A stretch of 64,000 nt of DNA from Candidatus Woesebacteria bacterium GW2011_GWF1_31_35 (GTDB taxonomy: Bacteria > Patescibacteriota > Microgenomatia > UBA8517), in assembly GCA_001029755.1 (NCBI GenBank), contig CP011214.1, forward strand, positions 711,258 to 775,257. Reading direction: 5' to 3'. The notes beneath the pieces were generated by a model. It ran no database searches and was not told where the DNA came from. It saw only the letters and a list, made by a program, of their open reading frames with translations. This document shows, one piece after another, positions 24,009 to 42,059 of the stretch (position 1 is the stretch's first letter; every line of letters starts with the position of its first letter). The translations under genes were made by a program, and so were the position numbers.

Positions 24009-24449
24009 ATGTCAAACGAAAGATTTACTTTACGAGCAGCAGTTTATTTGATACTTCTAAAGGAAGATAAAATATTGCTTTCACGAAGATACAACACAGG
24101 TTGGATGGATGGAAAATATAGTTTGATAGCAGGACACATTGATGGAAATGAATCTGTTGACAAGGCCATGATAAGAGAGTCATGGGAAGAGGCTGGTATT
24201 AAAATTGTCAAAAAAGATTTAAAACCAGCAACAGTACTTCATAGAAAATCATCGGATCAAGAATACATGGATTTCTTTTTTGTTACAAAACAATGGACTG
24301 GTAGACCTACAATTAAAGAGCCTAATAAATGTGATGATATGGATTGGTTTCCACTAAATAATCTCCCTAATAATCTACTCCCCCATATTTTGGAAGCTAT
24401 TAAAAATTATCAAAACAAAACCCCTTTTTCAGAGAGTGGATGGGATTAA
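24009..24449 (+). CDS. NUDIX hydrolase
   Basis: The Nudix box GHIDGNESVDKAMIRESWEEAGI (Gx5Ex7REUxEExGU) is present. This is the only plus-strand gene inside the dcw block. Confidence 0.8.
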   Translation: MSNERFTLRAAVYLILLKEDKILLSRRYNTGWMDGKYSLIAGHIDGNESVDKAMIRESWEEAGIKIVKKDLKPATVLHRKSSDQEYMDFFFVTKQWTGRPTIKEPNKCDDMDWFPLNNLPNNLLPHILEAIKNYQNKTPFSESGWD

Positions 24450-28806: not shown

Positions 28807-29574
28807 TTATAGCTCTACTCTTTCAATTTTTTTTGATATATCTTGTCCTAAAAATAGGGCTGCTGTTTTGACAAATCTTTCATTTACATCAGTTAAAAAA
28901 TATATATCACTACCTACTTTATCATTAATATTTCTATCTGATTTTATTACATATTCATAAATAACTTTTGAAATCTCTTCAGCTGGATCAACCAATTTAA
29001 TTTTTTCTCCTAAATATCTTTTTATCTGATTTTTAATAAGTGGATAGTGGGTACAACCTAAAATTAATGTATCTATTTTTCCTTTAAAAACTAAAAAGTA
29101 CCTATCAATAAATAAATTAATTTCAGGTCCTTCTATAAATCCTTCTTCAATAAGTGGAACCAACATTGATGCATGAGCTCGAAGAGAAACTTCTTTATAT
29201 GAGCTACTATTAATAGTAGCTCTTGTGCCAACAACACCAATTTTTCCGGATTTTGTAACCTCTAAAGCTTTTTTAATTGCTGGGTCAATAACACCAAAAA
29301 CCGGTACGTTAGAATTCTTCTTTACAATATCTAATGCAAGTGAAGAAACAGTGTTACAAGCAACAACAATACAAGAAACATTTTTTGATAGTAAAAATAA
29401 AGTGTCTTCCTTTGCAAACTTTTCAATTGTTTCTTTACTTCTGGTTCCATATGGAACCCTCGCGGTATCTCCTAAATAAATTAAACTTACATTTGGTAGA
29501 AGTTTTTTGATTTCTTTTACAACTGTTAGACCACCAAGACCTGAATCAAATACTCCAATTATGAAAGGTTCCAC
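28807..29574 (-). CDS. murI: glutamate racemase
   Basis: IGVFDSGLGGLTV...YLGDTARVPYG is the MurI N-terminal signature and a second Cys region CNTVSS is present. Confidence 0.85.
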   Translation of the reverse strand: MEPFIIGVFDSGLGGLTVVKEIKKLLPNVSLIYLGDTARVPYGTRSKETIEKFAKEDTLFLLSKNVSCIVVACNTVSSLALDIVKKNSNVPVFGVIDPAIKKALEVTKSGKIGVVGTRATINSSSYKEVSLRAHASMLVPLIEEGFIEGPEINLFIDRYFLVFKGKIDTLILGCTHYPLIKNQIKRYLGEKIKLVDPAEEISKVIYEYVIKSDRNINDKVGSDIYFLTDVNERFVKTAALFLGQDISKKIERVEL

Positions 29575-30803
29575 ACTGCCTCCTTAAATTTATTTCCTCT
29601 ATCTTTATAATTTAAAAACATATCGAAAGAAGCTGCAGCAGGAGACAAAATTACTACACCATCTTTTTGTGTTATTCCAAATGCTTTTTCAACAATTTTA
29701 TCAATACTAGAAGTTCCCAAATCTATAATCTTTCCTTTAAATTTAGCATCAACAAGAGCTTTTTTAATTTGATTTCGAATTAGACCAATAAGGATAATAT
29801 TTTTGCAATTTTTTCTTTTTGAAATAATCTTGCCTAATTCTAGGTAATCTAAACCTTTATCAGACCCTCCTAATATTAATGTTTCATCCTCAGTAAATGA
29901 ATTAATAGCTGCAATAGTTGATTGTGGTCCTGTTGCGAAAGAATCATTATAAAATTTAATATCTTTAAACTTTCTAACAAATTCCAATCTATGTTCTAAA
30001 CCTTTAAAATTTTTAACTACTTCAAGGATTATTTTTTCATTAATATTTAAAACTTTAGAAACTGAAACTGCTGCTGCTATATTTTCTAAATTATGTTCTC
30101 CTCTTAAGATTAAATCTTTTTTAAATTCATTTTTTAATGTCTTTTTGGAAAAATACATAATATTTGCCTTTGTTTTTCTTGCAAAACTAGAAGAGACTTT
30201 ATATTCCTTATTTATAATTGCCCAATCTGAAGTATTTTGATATTTAACAATATTTTTCTTAGCTTCTATATATTCTTCTTTACTTTCATGCCAATCTAAA
30301 TGATCTAAAGTAATATTTAAAATAACTGCGATATCAGGACTAACCGGAAGATCAATTAATTGAAATGAGGATATTTCCATAACAACATAAGAACTACTTT
30401 TCAATTTAGGAAGTAATTCTAAAAGAGGTTTACCAATGTTTCCTCCCAAAAATACATCAAACTTTGCTTTTTTAAGTATTTCATAAATTAAGGTAGAAGT
30501 TGTTCCTTTGCCTTTTGTACCGGTAACTGCAATAACTTTTCCATTAAATTCATCAAAGAAAATATGTGTTGGAGTAGTTATTCTAATTCCATTTTCATGA
30601 ACTTTAATTAATTCCTTTTTATAAGGATAAATACCAGGCGAGCGAACTATTAAATCAAACTTTTCTAAGTTTGATAAATAATTTTTATCAAATTTTTGAT
30701 CTAATATAGTAACATAGCTTCCTTTATCTTTTAAGAATTTTTCACAATCTTGTCCTTCAAGACCATATCCAATTATTGCAACTTTTTTATCTTTATAATT
30801 CAT
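29559..30803 (-). CDS. murD: UDP-N-acetylmuramoylalanine--D-glutamate ligase
   Basis: The N-terminal Rossmann segment KVAIIGYGLEGQDCEKFL and the P-loop VIAVTGTKGKGTTSTLI are present in a 414-aa protein. Confidence 0.8.
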   Translation of the reverse strand: MNYKDKKVAIIGYGLEGQDCEKFLKDKGSYVTILDQKFDKNYLSNLEKFDLIVRSPGIYPYKKELIKVHENGIRITTPTHIFFDEFNGKVIAVTGTKGKGTTSTLIYEILKKAKFDVFLGGNIGKPLLELLPKLKSSSYVVMEISSFQLIDLPVSPDIAVILNITLDHLDWHESKEEYIEAKKNIVKYQNTSDWAIINKEYKVSSSFARKTKANIMYFSKKTLKNEFKKDLILRGEHNLENIAAAVSVSKVLNINEKIILEVVKNFKGLEHRLEFVRKFKDIKFYNDSFATGPQSTIAAINSFTEDETLILGGSDKGLDYLELGKIISKRKNCKNIILIGLIRNQIKKALVDAKFKGKIIDLGTSSIDKIVEKAFGITQKDGVVILSPAAASFDMFLNYKDRGNKFKEAVWNLS

Positions 30804-31642
30804 TTTTGTAATTTTTTAATTGATAAATTATCTGACAAATAATTATTTTTAGTAATTACACTTCTACCAAGTTCCTTCTCCGTCTTTTTTCTTGCATATC
30901 CAGCAACAGATCCACCACGATTTGCGACTTTTTTGTTTTGAATAAACCCCTTTGGTTTTTCAGTTGTTGAAATTTCAGTAGTTACTCGTTCCCCAAGCAT
31001 GGTAAAAATTAATTCTAGATCTGTCATATTATCTCTTAAGTTAATTTTTGTTTTATTTGGTATATTTTTAAGTTTTCTATATTCACTAGGGGTAATACCA
31101 AATGTAGCTTTTGATATTTCCGCTGTCAGAATTGCATAATCTAACTTATTTTTAATACCTCTCTCTTTCCATTCATCAGTTAAATTTTGACGAATTGCCA
31201 TTCCCCTTAAACGTTTATCTATCCAATCTTTGGGATACCCTTTTTGTTCATAAATACTTTTCATTCTTTCCTGTGCAAGCTCAGGATCTTCAATTTCCTG
31301 AATACGATCATTACCCACACTTGCTAACCACCGTTTGAAAGGCTCTGCATTTGGAGACGGAATTGATTGAATTATTCGAAATAAACCTTCAGTATCTGAA
31401 CAATCAGTCATCCTCATTTTATTATCATCGGCTTTTAACTTGAACTGTCGACAAATTGTCGATAGTTGTGCACCATCATTACTATTCATCCTAATTTTCA
31501 TCTTAAACCAATAATCACTTGAATCTGTACTTTTTGTTAAAATCGAAACCACATCAATAACAGAAAAATACCACTCATTTTTGTACCATTTTCGTCTTAT
31601 TTGTTTATTTTGAAAAATTACTAGACTACTATTTCTCTTCAT
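30800..31642 (-). CDS. Bro-N domain / DinD-like (DNA-damage-inducible protein D family) protein
   Basis: The N-terminus SLVIFQNKQIRRKWYKNEWYFSVIDVVSIL fits the Bro-N pattern (F..IR....E.WF.A.DVA.LL), and the C-terminal half aligns by eye to E. coli DinD (KRLRGMAIRQNL...DYAIL...LRDNMTDLELIFTMLGE). It has 4-nt overlaps with both the murC/B stop and the murD start. Confidence 0.55.
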   Translation of the reverse strand: MKRNSSLVIFQNKQIRRKWYKNEWYFSVIDVVSILTKSTDSSDYWFKMKIRMNSNDGAQLSTICRQFKLKADDNKMRMTDCSDTEGLFRIIQSIPSPNAEPFKRWLASVGNDRIQEIEDPELAQERMKSIYEQKGYPKDWIDKRLRGMAIRQNLTDEWKERGIKNKLDYAILTAEISKATFGITPSEYRKLKNIPNKTKINLRDNMTDLELIFTMLGERVTTEISTTEKPKGFIQNKKVANRGGSVAGYARKKTEKELGRSVITKNNYLSDNLSIKKLQK

Positions 31643-33774
31643 ATATTAATGTATTGTACTTCAGGTTCTAACTTTATTTTAAATTTATTATAAACATCAT
31701 TAGTAATTTCATCTGCTAATTTTTTAATATCATTAAAATTACCTTTACCTTCTGGATTTGTTAAAATCAAGGCGTGTTTATCTGAAACTTTTACGTTTCC
31801 CAATCTTTTTCCTTTCCAACCCGCTTTTTCTATTAAGTAACCTGCAGGAATTTTAAAGCTATTTTCAAATGAGTAAAATTTTATATCTTTATACATTTTC
31901 ACAAGTTCATTTTTTTTACTCAAATTAACTATTGGATTTTTAAAAAATGATCCTGCATTAGGAATTATGTCTGGATTTTCTAATTTTTCAGATCTTACTC
32001 TCAATATCTCATTTCTAATATTTTGTAATTTTAAATCAGTATCTACGTATTTTTGAAGTTTAAGTGTTACATTAGTAATAATAAACTTTTGAGAATTGTC
32101 TTTTTTCTTAAAAATACTTTCTCTATAGCCAAATCTACAATCATCTTTTTTAAATACTATAAATTTATCATTTTTAATATCATATGCAGTTAACTTAAAG
32201 AGAATATCTTTTAATTCTTGTCCATATGCTCCTATGTTTTGAATAGGAGAAGCTCCGACTGTACCAGGAATACCTGAAAGGCATTCTAATCCTTGTAAGT
32301 TTTTACTAACGGAAGTTTCAACTAATTTATCCCAAATTACGCCCGCCTCTGCTATTATTTTTGATCCGTCAACTTTTATACTATCTCCTACATATTTAAT
32401 AACTAAGCCATTAAAATCATTGTCCGATACCAAAATATCACTTCCTCCCCCTATTATAAAAATTGGTAAACTATTTTTCTTTGCAAACTTAATTTGTTTG
32501 ACCAATTCTTCTTTATTATTAACCTCTTTATAATATTTAATCTTTCCACCTACTTTCATTGTGGTTAAATCCTTAAATGAAATATTACCTTTCAAACTTT
32601 CTAGTATTTCTTTAGCCCAAAGATTACTATTTCCAGCTCCCATTACTAAAATAATATCTCCAGGTTTAATATCTTTTTTAATTATTCCTATAATTTCATC
32701 TATTGAATTAACTCCTATCGCATCTTTATGATTAGTTTCTTTTGCTACAATCTTGGGTGTTATCCCAAATGTTTTATTATCTCGTGCTTTAAAAATAGGA
32801 CCAATAATTACTTTGTCAGCTTTTTCAAAACAACTATTATATAGTTTGAATAAAGCATTGGTTCTATTAAAACCATGTGGCTCAACAATTGCCCATATTT
32901 TAGTTTTTGAATTAGCATTTTTTAAAGCTTCTAAAGTTGCTGTAATTGCGGTTGGATGATGTGCATAATCGTCATACACTTTAATTCTATTTTCCTCTCC
33001 AATTAATTCCAATCTTCTTTTAATACCTTTAAAATTTTCAAGAGAATTAATGATATTTTCTTCAGAAATATTTAATTTTTTACCTAAACAAAAAACCATA
33101 TTAGCATTTTTTTGATTATGTTCACCTAAGACTTTTAAATTAAATTTTTTATTAAAACTATCTTTTTGAGTAATTAATACTTTATCTCCTGTTAAATTAT
33201 TAATAAACTTATCAAAACTTTCTCTAAGCTGTTTTACATCTTTAAAATAATCTGGATGATCAAACTCTATATTATTAATAATTGCAATTTTAGGATAATA
33301 ATTTAGAAAATTATCATTAAACTCGTCTGCTTCTACAACAAAATATTTTCCTTTACCAAATCTATAATTTGCCTTCCATTCTGGAATATTTGCTCCTAGT
33401 ATTACTATTGGGTCAAAACCATTATCTTCAAGAAGTTTTCCTACCATTGCAGTTGTTGTTGATTTCCCATGAGTTCCTGCAATTGCAATAACAAACTTAT
33501 CCTTCATTAAATATTTACCCAAAAATTCCTGCCAAGTTATAACTATTCCCCTTTTTCTACCTTCTATTAATTCTGGATTATTTAAACTTTGGTAAAAAAC
33601 AGCAGGGGTAACAATAAGTAAATCAATATCCTTCAAATGATCTTTACTATGACCTTCTTTTTGTAAATCACAGCCTGTAACTTTATAGCCCATTTTAGAA
33701 GCTAAGGAAGCAACACCTGAAACACCACTTCCCGAAATTCCCATGAAATGAATCTTTTTAATTATTTTTTTCAT
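31639..33774 (-). CDS. murC/murB: fused UDP-MurNAc--L-Ala ligase (MurC) / UDP-N-acetylenolpyruvoylglucosamine reductase (MurB)
   Basis: Residues 1 to about 400 are MurC, with IHFMGISGSGVSGVA and AIAGTHGKSTTTAMV. Residues from about 400 to 711 are MurB, with KDLTTMKVGGKIKYY, IIGGGSDILVSD, LSGIPGTVGASPIQNIGAYGQE and RFGYRESIFK (FAD-binding fold). Confidence 0.85.
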   Translation of the reverse strand: MKKIIKKIHFMGISGSGVSGVASLASKMGYKVTGCDLQKEGHSKDHLKDIDLLIVTPAVFYQSLNNPELIEGRKRGIVITWQEFLGKYLMKDKFVIAIAGTHGKSTTTAMVGKLLEDNGFDPIVILGANIPEWKANYRFGKGKYFVVEADEFNDNFLNYYPKIAIINNIEFDHPDYFKDVKQLRESFDKFINNLTGDKVLITQKDSFNKKFNLKVLGEHNQKNANMVFCLGKKLNISEENIINSLENFKGIKRRLELIGEENRIKVYDDYAHHPTAITATLEALKNANSKTKIWAIVEPHGFNRTNALFKLYNSCFEKADKVIIGPIFKARDNKTFGITPKIVAKETNHKDAIGVNSIDEIIGIIKKDIKPGDIILVMGAGNSNLWAKEILESLKGNISFKDLTTMKVGGKIKYYKEVNNKEELVKQIKFAKKNSLPIFIIGGGSDILVSDNDFNGLVIKYVGDSIKVDGSKIIAEAGVIWDKLVETSVSKNLQGLECLSGIPGTVGASPIQNIGAYGQELKDILFKLTAYDIKNDKFIVFKKDDCRFGYRESIFKKKDNSQKFIITNVTLKLQKYVDTDLKLQNIRNEILRVRSEKLENPDIIPNAGSFFKNPIVNLSKKNELVKMYKDIKFYSFENSFKIPAGYLIEKAGWKGKRLGNVKVSDKHALILTNPEGKGNFNDIKKLADEITNDVYNKFKIKLEPEVQYINI

Positions 33775-34775
33775 TTAAGTTTTAGAATTGTATTTGCTAA
33801 TTTAAATGGATCATGTCTAAATAAATGTTCGTTTTTTAGATATCTTGATACGTTTTCATTTATTATTTTCATATTGGGAGCTATTTTTTTGCATTTTTCC
33901 TTATCTACTATTACCAAGTTTTGACCTTCTTCTTTATAAACCTTAAGGATCTCTTTGTCTAAATGATTTTTATTAACTATTAAATAATCGATAGCTTTAT
34001 TATTACCTAAATAAAAAAGAAATGATTTCAAAAAATCTGAAGCTTTGAAATTATCTGTTTCTCCTTCTTTTGTGGCTAAATTTAACACAATGATCAACTT
34101 AGCTTTTGATTTAATTATTGCTTCAGTTACACCTTCAACTAATAAATGAGGCAGGATACTTGTATAAAGATCTCCTGGAGAAAATACAATTTTATCTGCA
34201 TCTTTAATTGCATTTAAAACATCTTCATTGCTATCCACTCTTGAATCAAAATAAATTCTTATAATTCTGTCATTTGGATCAAAATTTTTATCTTTAACTC
34301 TTGTGTCAATGTTTTTTTCTCCAATTACAATATTACCTTTTTTGGTTTCTGCAACAAGTTGAACATTCGTTATAGTTGCGGGTACAATTTTAGCCATAAT
34401 TCTAAAAAGTTCTCTTTCCGCTACTATTCCCCTGTCTTGACCTGAATAAATATGATCTAATCTTGCTGTTATTAAATTACCAATTGAATGACCTTTTAAA
34501 GGTCCAGATGATTCTTCTAACCTATCATCAAAAAGTCTTTGAGCTACTTTTCTTTGATTTTCATCTTCCATTAAGGCAAGCATACAACGCCTTAAATCTC
34601 CAGGAGGCAAAACTCCCAATTCTGTTCTTAATCTTCCAGAGCTACCACCACTATCCCAAGTACTAGCAACAGCTGTTATTAATTTTGTTTCGTTTAAATC
34701 TCTAAGTCCATCAAGAAGATGAAATTGACCAGTACCACCTCCAAAAGTAACTATTTTCTGTTTATATTTAGCCAT
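33771..34775 (-). CDS. yvcK: YvcK/CofD-like gluconeogenesis-factor family protein (UPF0052)
   Basis: FGGGTG, DSGGSSGRLR, PPGDLR, GHSIGNL, SPGDLYTS and GETDNFKASD match the B. subtilis YvcK signature blocks in the same order. Confidence 0.85.
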   Translation of the reverse strand: MAKYKQKIVTFGGGTGQFHLLDGLRDLNETKLITAVASTWDSGGSSGRLRTELGVLPPGDLRRCMLALMEDENQRKVAQRLFDDRLEESSGPLKGHSIGNLITARLDHIYSGQDRGIVAERELFRIMAKIVPATITNVQLVAETKKGNIVIGEKNIDTRVKDKNFDPNDRIIRIYFDSRVDSNEDVLNAIKDADKIVFSPGDLYTSILPHLLVEGVTEAIIKSKAKLIIVLNLATKEGETDNFKASDFLKSFLFYLGNNKAIDYLIVNKNHLDKEILKVYKEEGQNLVIVDKEKCKKIAPNMKIINENVSRYLKNEHLFRHDPFKLANTILKLK

Positions 34776-36723
34776 TTATTCTTTTACTCATTTTTCTTTC
34801 TGCATTTTGTAATTGCTCTGGCGTATTAATTCCCTGCCATTCATTTGCATCAGGTAATTTATAAACCGAAACTTTTTGATTTTGGCTTAAAGCAAACTTA
34901 ATCAAATCAGTTAAATAATATTCTCCTGTCACAGGACTTTTGTTAATCTTATTAATATTTTTTCTTAACCAGTTAGATTTAAAAACATAAAGACCATCAT
35001 TTACTTCTTTTACCTTTTTTTGAGATTCATTTGCATCTTTTTCTTCAATAATTCCAATTAAATTATCATTTTTATCCCTAATAACTCTTCCTAATCCAAA
35101 TGGATTTTCTTGAATTAAACTCACGAATGTTAAAGAAGCATTTGAGTTTTTATGTGTTTCAATAACATTTTTGATTGTGGCTGGCTTATAAAAAGCACTA
35201 TCATCACCATATATTACTAAAATATCAATATATTTTAAATCTATTTTCTTTAAAGCTTTTAAAACAGAATTACCCGTGCCTAGAGTAGTTTCTTGAATAG
35301 CGTAATTGCATTCTTTCGATATTTCTCTTAATACTAAATTCCTTTTATATCCAACAACGGGAACTAAATTAATAACCCCTGCATTTCTTAAGTTTTCCAT
35401 CGAATATGAAATCATTGGTCTATCACAAATATTATGTAGAACTTTCGGCAAATCTGACTTCATCCTTGTTCCTCGACCTGCTGCAAGGATAACTCCAGCC
35501 AAATCTTTATAACCATTCAAAATATTTTTGACAAACTTTTGATCACTCCAAGGATGTTCAAAACCCCCATAAGCCATAGTTATTTCATGACCTTTTCCAC
35601 AAAAAACTAATGCATCTCCTTTTTTGGCAATCCTAATAGCATATGAAATTGCTTCACCACGTTCAGGAATACAGATATAATTTTTTGCATACTTTTTCAT
35701 TTGTTTTAAAATATCAAAGATATTTTCACTTCGAGGATCTTCTGCGGTTAAAATTGAAATGTCAGCAATTTCACCTGAAATCTTACCCATTTTAGATCTC
35801 TTTTTAATATCTCTTTCTCCAGCGCATCCAAATACTGAAATTAACCTCCCTTTGGTAATAGTTTTTAAATAACCTAAAACTGCTTCTAAAGAATCAGGTG
35901 TGTGAGCAAAATCAACAAAAATTTTAATACCAAGAGAATTTTCTATTTCTTCAAGTCTTCCGATTGGAAGTTTAAATGAATTAAGTGCGTTTTTAGATTC
36001 TTTTTCAGAAATCCCAAGTTTTTCACATACTTCAATTGCTGTCTGGGCATTTATATTATTAAAATCACCTTCCAATATTTTTAACTTTGTAGACTTTGGA
36101 CTAATAATTTGAATTTTGCAGGATTTTAAAAATGACATCTTAGTATTTTTATAATTTTTAAAAGTTTTATGATAATCAAGGTGTTCCGGAGCAATGTTAG
36201 TTAATACCCCAATGTCAAACTTGATTCCTGCAATCCTGCCTTGTTCAATTCCATGTGATGAAACTTCTAAAATTACATAATTAAATCCTTTATCAACAAA
36301 ACCCTTTAACATTTTATTTAAGGTAATTACGTCAGGAGTAGTGACATGATATCCAGGAACTGAAATAGAACTTATAAGCCCTGCCTTTTTACCTAATTTA
36401 GTTAAAATATGGTAGATTAAATGACAGGTTGTTGTCTTTCCTTTGGTTCCAGTTACTCCAATTATGGTTAATTTACTTGAAGGATTTTTGTAATATTCTG
36501 AGGCTAATTCTCCTAATTTTTCTCTCGAATTTGAAACTTTTATATAATTTACACCAGAAGCTATTTTGATATTCTCTCCGCTATGATATTCAGTTTCGCC
36601 ATAAATAATTTTTGCCCCGTTTTTAATAGCCTCATCTATATGATCATGTCCATCAGAAATTTGGCCTTTAATTGCTACAAATGTATCCCCAGATTTTATC
36701 AACCTTGAATCAAATGAAATCAT
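34768..36723 (-). CDS. murE: fused MurE (UDP-MurNAc-L-Ala-D-Glu--diamino-acid ligase) plus a GlmU-type N-terminal sugar-1-phosphate uridylyltransferase domain (no LbH acetyltransferase domain)
   Basis: Residues 1 to about 405 are MurE, with DSRLIKSGDTFVAIKG, IIGVTGTKGKTTTCHLI and an EDPR variant of the DNPR motif. Residues 406 to 651 begin LAGVILAAGRGTRMKSDLPKVLH, which is almost identical to the GlmU pyrophosphorylase signature, and end GINTPEQL. No hexapeptide repeats follow. Confidence 0.8.
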   Translation of the reverse strand: MISFDSRLIKSGDTFVAIKGQISDGHDHIDEAIKNGAKIIYGETEYHSGENIKIASGVNYIKVSNSREKLGELASEYYKNPSSKLTIIGVTGTKGKTTTCHLIYHILTKLGKKAGLISSISVPGYHVTTPDVITLNKMLKGFVDKGFNYVILEVSSHGIEQGRIAGIKFDIGVLTNIAPEHLDYHKTFKNYKNTKMSFLKSCKIQIISPKSTKLKILEGDFNNINAQTAIEVCEKLGISEKESKNALNSFKLPIGRLEEIENSLGIKIFVDFAHTPDSLEAVLGYLKTITKGRLISVFGCAGERDIKKRSKMGKISGEIADISILTAEDPRSENIFDILKQMKKYAKNYICIPERGEAISYAIRIAKKGDALVFCGKGHEITMAYGGFEHPWSDQKFVKNILNGYKDLAGVILAAGRGTRMKSDLPKVLHNICDRPMISYSMENLRNAGVINLVPVVGYKRNLVLREISKECNYAIQETTLGTGNSVLKALKKIDLKYIDILVIYGDDSAFYKPATIKNVIETHKNSNASLTFVSLIQENPFGLGRVIRDKNDNLIGIIEEKDANESQKKVKEVNDGLYVFKSNWLRKNINKINKSPVTGEYYLTDLIKFALSQNQKVSVYKLPDANEWQGINTPEQLQNAERKMSKRING

Positions 36724-36726
36724 ATT

Positions 36727-37980
36727 TTAATCTTCTCTTTTAATGGAAGCTCCAAGAGAAGTCAAGCGGTTTTGGATATCTTCGTAACCTCTATTTACTA
36801 CTTCTACATTTTCAATTGTACTAGTTCCTTCAGCTACCATGGCTGCTAGTATTACTGAAATTCCAGCTCTTATATCTTTACAAAAGAGTCTGTCTGAAAT
36901 TAATTTTGTAGGACCTGACACAATTACCCTATGAGGATCAGCAATTAAAATATTAGCTCCCATTCCTATTAAATCATCTACAAAAAACATTCTCCATTCA
37001 TACATCCAATCGTGACATAGAATTGTACCTTCAGTTTGTGTGGCAAGAACTATAAACGGACTCATTAAATCTGTTGGAAACCCTGGCCATGGACGGGTTT
37101 GAAACTTTCTTCTTTGGGCTTTTAATTTTGAAGGTAGAATAACTAAACTTTCTTTTTCAATCTCATATTTAATACCCATATTACCTAGATAATTTAGAAT
37201 CATATGATAATTATTTATATTAAAATCATTAATTTTTACTTTCCCTCCAGTTATTGCTGAAGCTATTGCAAATGTACCACCTTCAATGTGATCAGGCATT
37301 ACTTTATGTTCAGCTCCATGTAAGTTTCCTCCAGAGCAAACTAAAGTATTAGTTCCAATTCCTGAAATTTTAGCTCCCATCTTACACAAAAACTTGGCCA
37401 AATCTTCTACATGAGGTTCTGCTGCTGCATCCTCAATTATTACCTCTTCATTCATTGAAGATGCCATAATAAGTCCCATTTCAGTCGCTGTAACCGAAGC
37501 TTCTTCTAAAAATACTCTACCAGATAATCTTTTATCCCAAGAAAGATAAAACTTTCCATCTTTTCTTTCAAAATTTACCCCCAGTTTTTGCATTAAATTA
37601 AAATGGGTATCAAGAAGTCTATCTCCTATTTGATCCCCCCCAGGAGGAGTTATTACTGCCCTTCCGAAACGAACTAAAAGCGGAGCTGCTAAAACCACAG
37701 ACGCGCGAAGTTTGGCACATAAATCAGAATCTGGTTCAAATGAATTTAATCCCGATGGATCAATTTCAACCACATTTTTCTCAAAAGTAACTTTTGCTCC
37801 CAATTTTTCAATAATTTGCAAAATTACTCTAACATCTGAAATATCAGGAACATTAGTTAAAACAGATTTTTCTGTTGAGGCTAAACAGGCAGGGATAAGT
37901 TTAAGTGCAGAATTTTTGTTTCCAGAAAGTTTTATTTCACCTTCTAGTTTATTTCCTCCTTTAATTAAAAACTTTGCCAT
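36727..37980 (-). CDS. murA: UDP-N-acetylglucosamine 1-carboxyvinyltransferase, with Asp in place of the fosfomycin-target Cys
   Basis: MAKFLIKGGNKLEGEIKLSGNKNSALKLI is the MurA N-terminus. The loop PPGGDQIGDRLLDTH aligns to E. coli PGGCTIGARPVDLH, so Cys115 is replaced by Asp. The track start at 38043 is TTG and would overlap ftsI by 47 nt, so I used the ATG at 37980. Confidence 0.85.
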   Translation of the reverse strand: MAKFLIKGGNKLEGEIKLSGNKNSALKLIPACLASTEKSVLTNVPDISDVRVILQIIEKLGAKVTFEKNVVEIDPSGLNSFEPDSDLCAKLRASVVLAAPLLVRFGRAVITPPGGDQIGDRLLDTHFNLMQKLGVNFERKDGKFYLSWDKRLSGRVFLEEASVTATEMGLIMASSMNEEVIIEDAAAEPHVEDLAKFLCKMGAKISGIGTNTLVCSGGNLHGAEHKVMPDHIEGGTFAIASAITGGKVKINDFNINNYHMILNYLGNMGIKYEIEKESLVILPSKLKAQRRKFQTRPWPGFPTDLMSPFIVLATQTEGTILCHDWMYEWRMFFVDDLIGMGANILIADPHRVIVSGPTKLISDRLFCKDIRAGISVILAAMVAEGTSTIENVEVVNRGYEDIQNRLTSLGASIKRED

Positions 37981-37996
37981 GTAAGTAATATTATAC

Positions 37997-39664
37997 CTAA
38001 TTTTCAGGCTGAATGCCAAAATAGTTAAAAAGATCCTTTGCAATCGAATACCAAAGAGGAGCCGCGGTTTCTGAAGCCCACTGAGAACTTTGTGGCTCTT
38101 TTAAAGTCACCAGCATAATAAATTTAGGATTATTAGCTGGAGCAAAACCTACAAAGCTAGCAATTGTTTTTTCAGCATCATAATGACCAGAAATTGGAAT
38201 TTGAGCAGTTCCAGTTTTACCAGCAACACTAAACCCTTTTAAATTTGTCCATTTAGATTCTCCATAGGAAGCAGCATCAACCATTATTGCAGTCATTTTT
38301 TGAGAAGCATCTTCTGAAATAATTTTTTCTTTTGTAAATGAATTATTGTTTTCAACTACCTTAGGAGTTATTAGATATCCTCCATTGGCAATAACCGAGG
38401 CTGCTCGAATAATTTGAATCGGGGTTGTGGCAATTCCTTGTCCGAATGATGCTGTGACTAAATCTACAATATTCCACGTCCATTTTTTACGTAAAGAAAT
38501 ATTAGATTCTCCTTGTAAATCAATGTTTGTTGCTTTTCCAATTCCAAATTTATCCAAATAATCATAAAGTAAGTTATTTCCTAATTTTTGTGCAACAAAA
38601 CTCATTCCAACATTGTCTGAATGAACAATTACATCTCTCATTGTAGAATCTGGATAATATTTTTTATCCCACGTTTCAATAAAATATTTATCTACTTTTA
38701 AAGGACCTGTACATATATCACAAATTGTGTCGGGTTTTACTACCTTAGCATCAAGTGCAGCTGCCATAACTACAATTTTAAATACAGAACCAGGTTCAAA
38801 TGTATCAGAAATTACTGGATTCCTATAAAGAGAACCATCAAATTCATTATATTTCGCTGGATCATATGATGGATATGAACTCATTCCTAATATTTTTCCT
38901 GTAAAAGGATCCATCACTACAACAGATCCCTCTTTTGCCCCATACTTTTCAATCCCTTCTTTTAGTTTTTCCTCAATTGAATTTTGGATTCTTTTATCAA
39001 TAAAGGTAATAAGATCAGTTCCTGCCAAAGAAGTCATTTCAGAAACTCCACCAGAAAGAAGAGGAACGCCTCTTAAATCTTTTTCTCTTTGAATATAACC
39101 ACTTTTTCCAGAAAGCAGAATATCATAAAATCCCTCTAATCCAAAATAACCGGTATCGTTTCCCTCGTCATTTTTGCCTACAAAACCTAAAAGTTGTGCG
39201 GAAGAAGATCCTTCTGGATAATATCTATTTTCTTCAGTTTCAAAACCAAGCCCAGTAATTCTTAAGTTTTCAATTTTTTCTTTTATATCAGCAGTAATTT
39301 TATGTCTTATTGGAACCCAAACTACACCGTCCCTATTTAGTATTTTTTCTATCCTATCAATTTCAATAAGAATATCTTCTTGTGGAACTAAAAAAGGTGC
39401 AATTAAATTAGCAATTTCGTTTGTGGGTTTGGATAATTTAGGTAATTCCGCAAAAAGTAACCAGTTAGTGCGTGTTACAGCCAACCAAGTACCATCATTT
39501 GCATAAATGTTTCCTCTTGAAGCCTCAATTTTCTTTGAACCGGAGTATTGTAAACTTGCTTCCTGACTTAATTCTTTACCTTTAACTATTTGCCAATAAA
39601 ATAATCTAACTGAGACCGAAGCAAAAAATAGAAAAAATACAAAAGCAGCAATTTTAAGTCGCAT
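37997..39664 (-). CDS. ftsI: penicillin-binding protein, class B transpeptidase (FtsI/PBP2-type)
   Basis: An N-terminal TM helix, a dimerisation domain and the transpeptidase motifs SVFK (SxxK), HSDN (SxN) and KTGT are present. Confidence 0.85.
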   Translation of the reverse strand: MRLKIAAFVFFLFFASVSVRLFYWQIVKGKELSQEASLQYSGSKKIEASRGNIYANDGTWLAVTRTNWLLFAELPKLSKPTNEIANLIAPFLVPQEDILIEIDRIEKILNRDGVVWVPIRHKITADIKEKIENLRITGLGFETEENRYYPEGSSSAQLLGFVGKNDEGNDTGYFGLEGFYDILLSGKSGYIQREKDLRGVPLLSGGVSEMTSLAGTDLITFIDKRIQNSIEEKLKEGIEKYGAKEGSVVVMDPFTGKILGMSSYPSYDPAKYNEFDGSLYRNPVISDTFEPGSVFKIVVMAAALDAKVVKPDTICDICTGPLKVDKYFIETWDKKYYPDSTMRDVIVHSDNVGMSFVAQKLGNNLLYDYLDKFGIGKATNIDLQGESNISLRKKWTWNIVDLVTASFGQGIATTPIQIIRAASVIANGGYLITPKVVENNNSFTKEKIISEDASQKMTAIMVDAASYGESKWTNLKGFSVAGKTGTAQIPISGHYDAEKTIASFVGFAPANNPKFIMLVTLKEPQSSQWASETAAPLWYSIAKDLFNYFGIQPEN

Positions 39665-39696
39665 TTTAAATAATATAATCTTAGAAAATTTAAAAA

Positions 39697-39975
39697 TTAA
39701 CGAACAGGAAGTTTGGCAAAACCACTATCAACCGAAAAATAATAAACTCTAGTAGGTTTAGCAAAACCCAATTCTTGTGCAATTTTTTGATTACTCTTTT
39801 CAGAATTTTGACTAAATATCCCTTCCGAAAGATTCATCTTTTGTGTAGAAGCCGTCTCTAATTCATCTTCTAATTTCGCAATTTCAGCACCTCTTCCTGC
39901 CTGTTCTATTCCTAAGAATACTAAAGATGCAAAAAGTACTAAATTAATTCCTAATATTATTTTTAATTTTTTCAT
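39697..39975 (-). CDS. ftsL: FtsL/DivIC-like cell division protein
   Basis: The 92-aa protein has a single TM helix followed by a short coiled coil (EIAKLEDELE). It sits between rsmH and ftsI as in canonical dcw clusters. Confidence 0.5.
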   Translation of the reverse strand: MKKLKIILGINLVLFASLVFLGIEQAGRGAEIAKLEDELETASTQKMNLSEGIFSQNSEKSNQKIAQELGFAKPTRVYYFSVDSGFAKLPVR

Positions 39976-40021
39976 AATTTTTTATTTCAAGCCCTGCTTT
40001 TAATGTAATCACAAGCTCCGC

Positions 40022-40855
40022 TTATAATTTCTTTTCTAAAATATATAACTTTGCACTCCTTGATTTTTGATTATTAAAAATTTCTTCCTGACTTGGTAAA
40101 ACTACTTCACCTTTACCTTTAAAAAAATCTTTAACAATTCTTTCTTCACCCGAATGAAAAGTTATTACTAAAAGTCTCCCACCATTTTCTAAAAGGTTAA
40201 AAGCTTTTGGTAATACCTCTTCTAAATTTTCAAGTTCACTATTAACTGCAATTCTTAAGGCTAACATGGGTAGTGTTGCTGGATTTAAACTTCGTTTATG
40301 TGGCAAATCTTCTAAACATAAATTTAATTCTCCAACTGTTGTAATAGGCCTAACATTAACTATTCTTTCAGCAATTTTTTTTGCGTTAGCAAAATTAACA
40401 ATCTTTGCAAAAAGATTTGTCAATTGAGTTTTATCTAAAACATTTAATAAATCTGATGCCTTCACCCCTTGTGAGTTAGGATTAAGTCTCATATCAAGAG
40501 CTTGACTAGAATCACTAAATGAAAACCCTCTATTGTCTTCTTTTAGATGAATGTTTGAAACTCCTAAGTCAAGTAAAATTCCGGTAACTTTACTAAAATT
40601 ATTTTCTTTAGCAATTTTATCTATATTGGTAAAATTTTCTAATACAAATTTGCCCGTTTCTTTTAATCTATCTTTAGCAATTGCTAAAATTTTAGGATCT
40701 CTTTCAATCCCCAGGACTTTACCACCTAAATTAATAATTGCTTGACTATGACCACCTGTTCCTAAAGTTGCGTCTATTATTTGTGAACTTTTATTAATGT
40801 GCAAACTCTTTATAACTTCTTTAACCATTACCGACTCGTGGTAATTATTTTTCAT
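40022..40855 (-). CDS. rsmH: 16S rRNA (cytosine1402-N4)-methyltransferase
   Basis: YHESVMVKEVIKSL...IIDATLGTGGHSQAI is the RsmH/MraW signature. The gene is second in the dcw cluster. Confidence 0.9.
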   Translation of the reverse strand: MKNNYHESVMVKEVIKSLHINKSSQIIDATLGTGGHSQAIINLGGKVLGIERDPKILAIAKDRLKETGKFVLENFTNIDKIAKENNFSKVTGILLDLGVSNIHLKEDNRGFSFSDSSQALDMRLNPNSQGVKASDLLNVLDKTQLTNLFAKIVNFANAKKIAERIVNVRPITTVGELNLCLEDLPHKRSLNPATLPMLALRIAVNSELENLEEVLPKAFNLLENGGRLLVITFHSGEERIVKDFFKGKGEVVLPSQEEIFNNQKSRSAKLYILEKKL

Positions 40856-41279
40856 TTTTACTTAAATTTTCAATATACTCTTTAGTTGTTTGTGCCAATT
40901 TAGTTGATTTCTCGTCCCAAACTGTCTTTGGCCAAACCTCAACTCTGTCTATTAATCCTACAAAACAAATTTCTTTTTCAAATTTTGCATACTCAGCTAA
41001 TATTTCAGGGATTATGATTCTACCTTGCTCATCCGGCTTTTGCTCAAAGGCAGATCCTAAAATAAACCTTTCGATATCTCTAACCCCCAAATCTCTTGCT
41101 CTTTTACCTCCTGTTAGTCTAGTTGATAGATTTTCCCAAAAATCTGAGCTTACTAAAATTAGACAATCCTCATACCATTTGGCTAAGATAGGGTTATCTC
41201 CTAATTCATTTATAAATTTTTTAGGTACCGCGACTCTACGTCTGTCGCTTAATATTCCCAAATAGGTTCCTATTAACAT
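40845..41279 (-). CDS. mraZ: transcriptional regulator MraZ
   Basis: MLIGTYLGILSDRRRVAVPKKFINEL aligns with the MraZ N-terminus (MFMGEYxHxIDxKGRxxVPAKFRExL) and the protein carries two DXXXR-type repeats. The track start at 41306 is GTG and the internal ATG at 41279 fits the family N-terminus. Confidence 0.8.
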   Translation of the reverse strand: MLIGTYLGILSDRRRVAVPKKFINELGDNPILAKWYEDCLILVSSDFWENLSTRLTGGKRARDLGVRDIERFILGSAFEQKPDEQGRIIIPEILAEYAKFEKEICFVGLIDRVEVWPKTVWDEKSTKLAQTTKEYIENLSKNEK

Positions 41280-41387
41280 AAATTTACTTTCTTGGGCAGG
41301 AACCACTTTTCACCACTACAAACCATTTTGATATCTTTTCACAACGATGTCAAGAGGTATTTCACGAAGAATTATGTAACTTAAGTA
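41280..41387 (-). promoter_or_regulatory. dcw-cluster leader holding a TTGACA -35-like hexamer and three direct GTGAAA(A) repeats, a candidate MraZ operator/promoter
   Basis: The minus-strand sequence reads CTTCGTGAAATACCTCTTGACATCGTTGTGAAAAGATATCAAAATGGTTTGTAGTGGTGAAAAGTGG. The GTGAAA copies are spaced 23 and 29 bp apart and the last copy contains AAAGTGG. Confidence 0.3.
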
Positions 41388-42059
41388 TTATTTATAGAAG
41401 ATATTTGCACCAACTTTTTGCCAGCCTTCAGCCGTGCCTGAAGGAAGTGTATCTGAAGCAAAAATTCCGTAAGGACCAGAGGTAACTGTTGATGGTCCGC
41501 CACTTATGAATCCAAAAGTTTCCATTGTTACAAAAAACATACCTTTTGGTTTTTTATCCAATGTATACTTAAAAGTATCATCAATTGAGGTTAATTCTAA
41601 ATCTATTGACTGTAGATGAAACTTAGTAGAAAATTTTGCTAATAATTTTCCTTTAGAATCTCTTAATCTTATAGTTAAACTACCATCATTTACACCCTCA
41701 TCATATCTAAACTTACCAGAAGACTCGGAGCCTAACAAAAGCTTCCTCTCAATCTCTGTAGCCCCTTTTAAATCGATGTTACCAGGTACACCTTGTGTTC
41801 TACCATCTGGAAGCGAATATAAAAGCTCATAATCGAGAGATGTAACTTTGGCAAGTTTAATTTTTTCAATTTTTAGAGTTAAATAATGACCATCAGAAGT
41901 TGGAGTTAGCGAAGCTACTGGTCTATCAGAAAGACCTACTTCAATAACAGCATTAGAATCATCTACAGGAGTTGCTCTACCCTTTTTAATAAATACAAAA
42001 ACTAAAACTAAGATAAGAAGACCTGCTACAAAAAGAATTATCGGCAAGATTTTTTTCAT
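41388..42059 (-). CDS. hypothetical signal-anchored exported protein
   Basis: The N-terminus MKKILPIILFVAGLLILVLVFVFI is a signal anchor and the rest is a soluble beta-rich sequence with no motif. Confidence 0.35.
   Translation of the reverse strand: MKKILPIILFVAGLLILVLVFVFIKKGRATPVDDSNAVIEVGLSDRPVASLTPTSDGHYLTLKIEKIKLAKVTSLDYELLYSLPDGRTQGVPGNIDLKGATEIERKLLLGSESSGKFRYDEGVNDGSLTIRLRDSKGKLLAKFSTKFHLQSIDLELTSIDDTFKYTLDKKPKGMFFVTMETFGFISGGPSTVTSGPYGIFASDTLPSGTAEGWQKVGANIFYK

Follow-up and report, generated by a model that had tools for sequence, protein, structure and literature searches.

What kind of enzyme is encoded by a murA gene that lies inside the division and cell wall (dcw) cluster and carries an aspartate at the position of the cysteine that fosfomycin attacks in Escherichia coli? 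The question is raised by a 64-kb stretch of the genome of Candidatus Woesebacteria bacterium GW2011_GWF1_31_35 (contig CP011214.1, positions 711,258 to 775,257 of the forward strand), referred to below as the window and numbered from its first letter. MurA transfers the enolpyruvyl group of phosphoenolpyruvate (PEP) to the 3'-OH of UDP-N-acetylglucosamine (UDP-GlcNAc), the first committed reaction on the way to peptidoglycan. Taken as a whole, the evidence is best explained by a genuine MurA, predicted to be active, of Candidatus Woesebacteria (Microgenomates, candidate phyla radiation or CPR), and this explanation is very probably correct. The coordinates of the features are collected in Table 1.

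The identity of the murA product was established by profile and structure comparisons. It scored 439.2 bits against the murA equivalog model TIGR01072, above the cut-off of 392.7, the match covering residues 1-415 of the protein and positions 1-416 of 416 of the profile. NF006873 gave 448 bits versus 297, and PF00275 matched over the full length (positions 2-417 of 417). In a search of the PDB, 32 distinct solved MurA sequences aligned with the protein end to end (residues 1-415, E-values 2e-81 to 8e-67), the identity to solved Cys-type MurA being about 40%. The same fold, PF00275, is common to MurA, AroA and NikO, and weaker PDB matches were indeed obtained for NikO (E 5.5e-22) and for AroA, i.e. 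the 5-enolpyruvylshikimate-3-phosphate (EPSP) synthases (E 1e-8 or weaker). The gene might then code for a MurA-like paralogue with another substrate, such as a NikO-type enolpyruvyl-uridine monophosphate transferase or an AroA-like enzyme, whose Asp would reflect a different chemistry. Nevertheless, the MurA structures are about 60 orders of magnitude ahead of NikO, the AroA model reaches 64 bits versus a cut-off of 287 where the MurA equivalog model is passed, and every UDP-GlcNAc and PEP contact residue is retained. Furthermore, the gene sits among mur genes and the window holds no other MurA candidate: no second MurA-like sequence was detected in the 64 kb by tblastn, the next best match having an E-value of 0.08. 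A NikO or AroA identity is rejected on the profile and PDB scores, and a paralogue of any such kind is extremely improbable.

In this MurA, Asp116 aligns with Cys115 of E. coli, as found by two alignments. In HMMER alignments with three solved MurA chains, ppggdqigdrlldth pairs ungapped with lpggcaigsrpvdqh. A MAFFT alignment of the query with E. coli MurA and with the 150 best representatives of the family likewise places an Asp of the query in the Cys115 column, within a loop of pattern PGG[D/C]xIGxR. The E. coli MurA reference was checked against 1uae (residues 1-419, 920 bits). The replacement of Cys115 by Asp had been proposed from the letters of the window (the sequence-only reading), and alignment to MurA references bears it out, with Asp and no Cys at this position; the end-to-end alignments to solved MurA at about 40% identity settle the column assignment. 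The catalytic apparatus is otherwise intact, the residues equivalent to E. coli K22, N23, R91, R120, D305, D369, R371 and R397 being all eight identical in the MAFFT alignment. Compared with E. coli MurA, the loop PPGGDQIGDRLLDTH has Leu-Leu in place of Pro-Val. In relatives, the Asp codon varies synonymously only, from GAT to GAC.

The consequences of such a substitution are known from other bacteria. The C115D variant of E. coli MurA is fully active and fosfomycin-insensitive, and the natural Asp enzymes of Mycobacterium tuberculosis, Chlamydia trachomatis as well as Borrelia burgdorferi are likewise active and insensitive, their Asp-to-Cys reversion restoring sensitivity (PMC4790336). An Asp-MurA recovered from a soil metagenome confers fosfomycin resistance on E. 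coli (PMC8066302). The tie drawn in the sequence-only reading between the C115D state and retained catalysis with fosfomycin resistance agrees with this published work. By analogy with the published Asp enzymes, retained activity and fosfomycin insensitivity may be expected of the Woesebacteria MurA. Asp116, on the mobile loop, would take the general acid/base and product-release role of E. coli Cys115. Because MurA inactivation by fosfomycin proceeds through alkylation of the Cys thiolate, the Asp enzyme would be intrinsically insensitive and still active. The protein resembles the MurA of M. tuberculosis, C. trachomatis and B. burgdorferi in having Asp in the Cys115 column of an otherwise canonical active site, and the soil clones (AEW1_Fos01, Mucilaginibacter-like; Cheng et al. 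2013) in being an environmental, non-pathogen MurA with an active-site Asp (PMC8066302). It differs from the former by its CPR/Woesebacteria lineage and from the latter, which are Bacteroidota-like and were obtained by functional selection, by having been recognised through its sequence alone and by its place in a dcw cluster; its activity and insensitivity are predictions.

Selection on the gene also points to a working enzyme. The ratio of non-synonymous to synonymous substitution rates (dN/dS) of murA is 0.03 in comparison with locus L056 (98% protein identity), 0.09 with locus L057 (94%) and 0.085 with a 78%-identical relative. The same cluster encodes MurB to MurG, MraY, FtsW and FtsI, which makes its mur pathway complete, and MurA function is expected to be retained since this pathway needs the MurA product. 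Conceivably, the Asp form could be a catalytically impaired or regulatory copy, the work being done by a second, Cys-type murA elsewhere in the genome. The part of the genome inspected amounts to 64 kb, and two murA genes do occur in some bacteria, as with MurA1 and MurA2 of low-GC Gram-positives. Such a division of labour is nevertheless improbable in view of the strong purifying selection (dN/dS 0.03-0.09), the conservation of all catalytic residues and the full activity of the Asp enzymes tested (PMC4790336). In addition, a scan of a genome collection returned one locus per related genome, including the complete chromosomes CP066686.1 and OY970314.1; the scan used peptide patterns of close relatives, which a divergent murA copy could escape.

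The Asp state of this MurA is widespread among its relatives. The closest database proteins are annotated as Candidatus Woesebacteria, Microgenomates or Patescibacteria. All of the 120 closest homologues (at least 69% identity) have Asp, in a near-invariant PPGGDQIG[DE]R loop. The genome-collection scan yielded 46 related loci of the same group with Asp in all 46, 45 of them matched by the loop pattern and the 46th (L042) not matched by that pattern. Further away, among the 150 best representatives of 50%-identity clusters, drawn from a clustering of 1.84 billion proteins, 61 have Asp (41%) and 86 have Cys. Among more distant relatives, MurA of Peribacteria, of a Butyrivibrio-labelled metagenome-assembled genome (MAG) and of Wolbachia also has Cys. 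By these counts, the Asp type is a common one in this part of the MurA family. Asp and Cys enzymes are intermingled on a neighbour-joining tree, where Fitch parsimony requires at least about 22 changes; the tree is crude (35-50% identity, without support values), so that the number of switches is to be read as an order of magnitude only. Most of the distant representatives are nameless clusters, the named ones being P0123 ("Patescibacteria") and P0129 ("Solirubrobacteraceae"), both of the Asp type. No paper on Asp-type MurA in CPR was found in the literature library searched.

Two side observations came from the same survey. Cluster P0127 contains Asp-type MurA proteins of 550-561 residues, which reach about 130 residues past the MurA domain; at one of its loci (L055, 2676-4349) the extended Asp-type murA adjoins a GmrSD-family gene. 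Besides, many loci that are clearly Microgenomates by MurA identity and dcw synteny (L005, L010, L012, L014 and others) stand in records titled "uncultured Gammaproteobacteria bacterium" or "Alphaproteobacteria bacterium", titles that look like mislabelled MAG taxonomy.

Where does translation of murA begin? The mechanical open reading frame (ORF) spans 36727-38043 on the - strand, a frame of 438 codons with TTG as its first codon. From the ATG at 37978-37980 the translation begins MAKFLIKGG and leaves a gap of 16 nt to the ftsI stop codon (TAG, 37997-37999); a start at TTG 38043 would mean an overlap of 47 nt with ftsI. At the other end, the TAA stop codon (36727-36729) is followed 3 nt further by the murE ATG at 36723. 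Homologues are 416-423 residues long and begin M[AS]KF[LI][IV]xGG, and this N-terminus lines up with residue 1 of solved MurA. Initiation at the TTG would give a 438-residue protein with a 21-residue N-terminal extension overlapping ftsI. The frame is open back to 38043, and ribosome-binding-site evidence cannot discriminate between the two codons in a genome without Shine-Dalgarno signals. Shine-Dalgarno motifs were therefore unusable as start evidence: among 54 crudely called genes of the window, one start is preceded by such a motif, that of the NUDIX hydrolase gene. Against the TTG, no homologue has the extension, and no counterpart of its 21 codons was found upstream of murA in the 46 related loci. 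There the in-frame open stretch ranges from 0 nt to the 276 nt of L031; it is below 125 nt in the other 45 loci and often ends within 0-30 nt. Lastly, a conserved promoter-like element lies between TTG and ATG. On account of the homologue lengths and N-termini and of this element downstream of the TTG, the longer form is rejected as highly improbable, its 21 codons being an accident of stop-codon placement. Sequence comparison thereby shows ATG 37980 as the start of translation, and the short N-terminus, the 16-nt gap and the 47-nt overlap had all been correctly described beforehand.

The promoter-like element consists of TTGGCA and TATAAT separated by 18 nt, which agree with the sigma70 consensus at 11 of 12 positions and form the best match in 36500-41600. 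In 44 of the 46 related loci a TAnA[AC]T box precedes the murA start by 6-15 nt; of the remaining two, one has the box 3 nt before the start and the other has none. The background of TAnA[AC]T in the same loci is 2.6% of positions, and that of the TGn-extended form 0.27%. Anchored on the box, the consensus reads TGnTAnAATA, with T at -3 in 38 loci, G at -2 in 41 and T1, A2, A4 and T6 invariant, and a TTTGGg consensus is found 17-18 nt upstream of it. L056 and L057 agree with the window at all 45 nt preceding the ATG, despite a murA synonymous divergence (dS) of 0.30-0.37. Neither a Shine-Dalgarno-like motif before murA nor a terminator-like site between ftsI and murA was detected. From these motifs we infer promoter function, the position of the transcription start and co-transcription of murA with its downstream genes. 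The gene would have a conserved promoter to itself, of the sigma70 type, whose -35 element lies in the last ftsI codons and whose -10 box lies in the spacer. Its transcript would be leaderless or carry a leader of 2-6 nt devoid of a Shine-Dalgarno motif, and would probably continue into murE::glmU and the following mur genes.

In leaderless genes of the Actinobacteria and Deinococcus type the -10 box stands directly before the start codon, at a spacing of 6-7 nt. The murA gene is similar in the closeness of its putative -10 box to the start codon and in the lack of a Shine-Dalgarno motif; its spacing of 9 nt is longer. No paper on leaderless translation in Patescibacteria was found in the literature library searched. 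Elsewhere in the window, whose GC content is 29.7%, a TAnAAT (-10-like) box stands 5-15 nt upstream of 14 of the 54 crudely called starts, including those of mraY, murF, murC::murB and a Bro-N gene. The window-wide pattern suggests that leaderless or short-leader initiation may be widespread and that the dcw cluster may contain several internal promoters.

The box could alternatively act in translation, as an A/T-rich initiation enhancer or standby site on a polycistronic mraZ-ftsI-murA transcript. The 16 nt between ftsI and murA without a terminator, the general lack of Shine-Dalgarno motifs in the genome and a spacing of 9-12 nt, near the usual position of a ribosome-binding site, are all compatible with such a role. 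It is however unlikely, given the specific extended -10 form TGnTAnAATA, the -35-like hexamer at 17-18 nt and the presence of the same type of box 6-12 nt before other genes, all of which argue for a promoter.

Several points weigh against parts of the overall picture of a fosfomycin-insensitive MurA expressed from its own leaderless-type promoter. The cell phenotype also depends on fosfomycin uptake, and the organism is uncultured. The 46 related loci are phylogenetically non-independent. The distance from the -10 box to the ATG (9 nt, and 6-15 nt in relatives) exceeds the approximately 6-7 nt of strictly leaderless genes, and for this reason a leader of 2-6 nt would be just as likely as none, the spacing predicting one of 0-6 nt. 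The -35 element overlaps conserved FtsI codons, which makes its conservation ambiguous, inseparable from that of the FtsI C-terminus. Finally, read-through from upstream promoters probably contributes as well, since the ftsI-murA spacer has no terminator.

Table 1. Features of the murA locus, followed by other genes of the dcw cluster (window positions).
Feature	Position	Strand	Description and basis
murA coding sequence	36727..37980	-	417 residues, ATG start, TAA stop; UDP-N-acetylglucosamine 1-carboxyvinyltransferase; TIGR01072, PF00275, PDB matches, dN/dS
GAT codon of Asp116	37633..37635	-	Column of E. coli Cys115, the residue alkylated by fosfomycin; HMMER and MAFFT alignments
Active-site loop PPGGDQIGDRLLDTH	37603..37647	-	Residues 112-126, including Arg121 (E. 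coli Arg120); alignments; identical or near-identical in 120 homologues
Putative -10 box TATAAT	37990..37995	-	Within the 16 nt between ftsI and murA, 9 nt separating its end from the ATG; part of the best promoter-like match in 36500-41600
-35-like hexamer TTGGCA	38014..38019	-	In the last ftsI codons, 18 nt upstream of the -10 box
TTG, mechanical ORF start	38041..38043	-	Rejected as translation start; upstream of the conserved putative promoter; 21-residue extension in no homologue
ftsI, upstream neighbour	37997..39664	-	Class B penicillin-binding protein (PBP); NCBIfam PBP/FtsI family matches; directly 5' of murA in 45 of the 46 loci of relatives
Downstream neighbour: fusion of murE with a GlmU-type N-terminal nucleotidyltransferase	34768..36723	-	TIGR01085, 405 bits; GlmU models; Pfam
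ORF antisense inside murA	37712..37984	+	90 residues; treated as spurious
yvcK	33771..34775	-	CofD-related UDP-GlcNAc-binding protein; TIGR01826, 261 bits
murC::murB fusion	31639..33774	-	711 residues; MurC and MurB models
Bro-N gene	30800..31642	-	280 residues; PF02498, E 2.5e-10
murI, glutamate racemase-like	28807..29574	-	
NUDIX hydrolase gene	24009..24449	+	

Is the position of this MurA gene unusual? It lies inside a 20-kb dcw cluster that runs from mraZ to ftsZ in the order mraZ-rsmH-ftsL-ftsI-murA-murE...ftsA-ftsZ, these genes being all on the - strand. Its location between ftsI and murE, first noted in the sequence-only reading, is confirmed by the coordinates and by the family matches of the neighbours. 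In the 46 Microgenomates loci, murA is within the dcw cluster without exception and directly follows ftsI in 45, with mraZ-rsmH-(ftsL) before; in the exception, L039, it stands between murF and mraY, still in the cluster. The gene after murA is alternately murE::glmU or yvcK. More distant arrangements are looser. An Asp-type locus of 48% identity (L051) has an operon murE::NTP-transferase-murC-murB-murA divergent from mraZ-rsmH-ftsL-ftsI; another Asp-type relative (L053) has a murA-murB-ddl group; and in a Cys-type locus of 43% identity (L054) murA is unlinked to mur genes.

The occurrence of murA in a dcw cluster is known from other bacteria. In the analysis of Léonard et al., the longest dcw cluster comprises 17 genes including murA, which belongs to it in five of the nine Firmicutes genomes but usually lies outside it otherwise, and a 17-gene ancestor including murA was inferred from a genome set without CPR (PMC8871954). 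This agrees with the sequence-only reading, according to which most bacteria have murA apart from dcw. The Woesebacteria cluster is like the 17-gene Firmicutes cluster, e.g. that of Acetohalobium arabaticum, in that murA is physically part of mraZ...ftsZ (PMC8871954), and like a Firmicutes-labelled locus (L049) in which murA is also in dcw, although after ftsW. It differs from both by the position of murA directly after ftsI and before murE, at the head of the mur block, a placement common to Woesebacteria-type genomes, and also by its murE::glmU and murC::murB fusions, yvcK and murI. What is new about the position is no more than this particular order, ftsI-murA-murE, in a CPR lineage. The sequence comparisons reported above show the Asp state and the adjacency to ftsI as inherited traits of the whole Woesebacteria-type lineage rather than a local event. 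The rarity implied by the first description has to be qualified: both observations are real, but both traits are fixed across Woesebacteria/Microgenomates and known from other bacteria. The gene codes for an ordinary canonical MurA of the Asp subclass already described; its genomic context, too, is of a known kind, and both traits are lineage-wide.

Some neighbouring genes of the cluster deserve mention in their own right. The MurE::GlmU-type fusion is a single ORF of 651 residues with the Pfam domains Mur_ligase, Mur_ligase_M, Mur_ligase_C and NTP_transferase. Its residues 407-650 correspond to positions ~2-241 of the GlmU profile, and profile matching found no acetyltransferase part of GlmU in it. 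About 30 related Microgenomates loci have this fusion, as does L051 (48% identity), and the Mur chimeras listed in PMC10214165 do not include it. The MurC::MurB fusion gives model matches to MurC in its N-terminal half and to MurB over residues 392-710; chimeras of this type were reported in published surveys mainly in Verrucomicrobia. The Bro-N gene overlaps both murC::murB and murD by 4 nt. It had no NCBIfam match and no counterpart was detected in any of 50 related loci, which makes it look like a phage- or mobile-element-type gene that entered the dcw operon recently. The yvcK gene, which follows either murA directly or murE::glmU in related loci, and the murI gene are both inside the cluster. 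The NUDIX hydrolase gene, between murG and an ftsQ-like gene, is the sole + strand gene from mraZ to ftsZ.

A broader scenario may be considered, in which an Asp-type MurA fixed in Woesebacteria-type CPR heads the mur block under its own leaderless-type promoter, and in which the frequent flips between Cys and Asp are driven by natural fosfomycin-like phosphonates or other thiol-reactive compounds. This joint reading is speculative and, taken together, unlikely. If such a driver were at work, fosfomycin insensitivity based on the target would be a common adaptation to the environment among uncultured bacteria and not a curiosity of a few pathogens. A published survey of the CPR resistome does not mention murA (PMC8651080). 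The prediction made here is that Woesebacteria-type CPR are intrinsically fosfomycin-insensitive at the target level, a property that could be of use in designing media for the selective enrichment or the co-culture of these uncultured organisms. The locus also adds a CPR data point to the debate on the ancestral dcw cluster. Lastly, a putative promoter without an accompanying Shine-Dalgarno motif hints that leaderless or short-leader initiation may be common in this genome, which matters for the calling of gene starts in CPR metagenome-assembled genomes.

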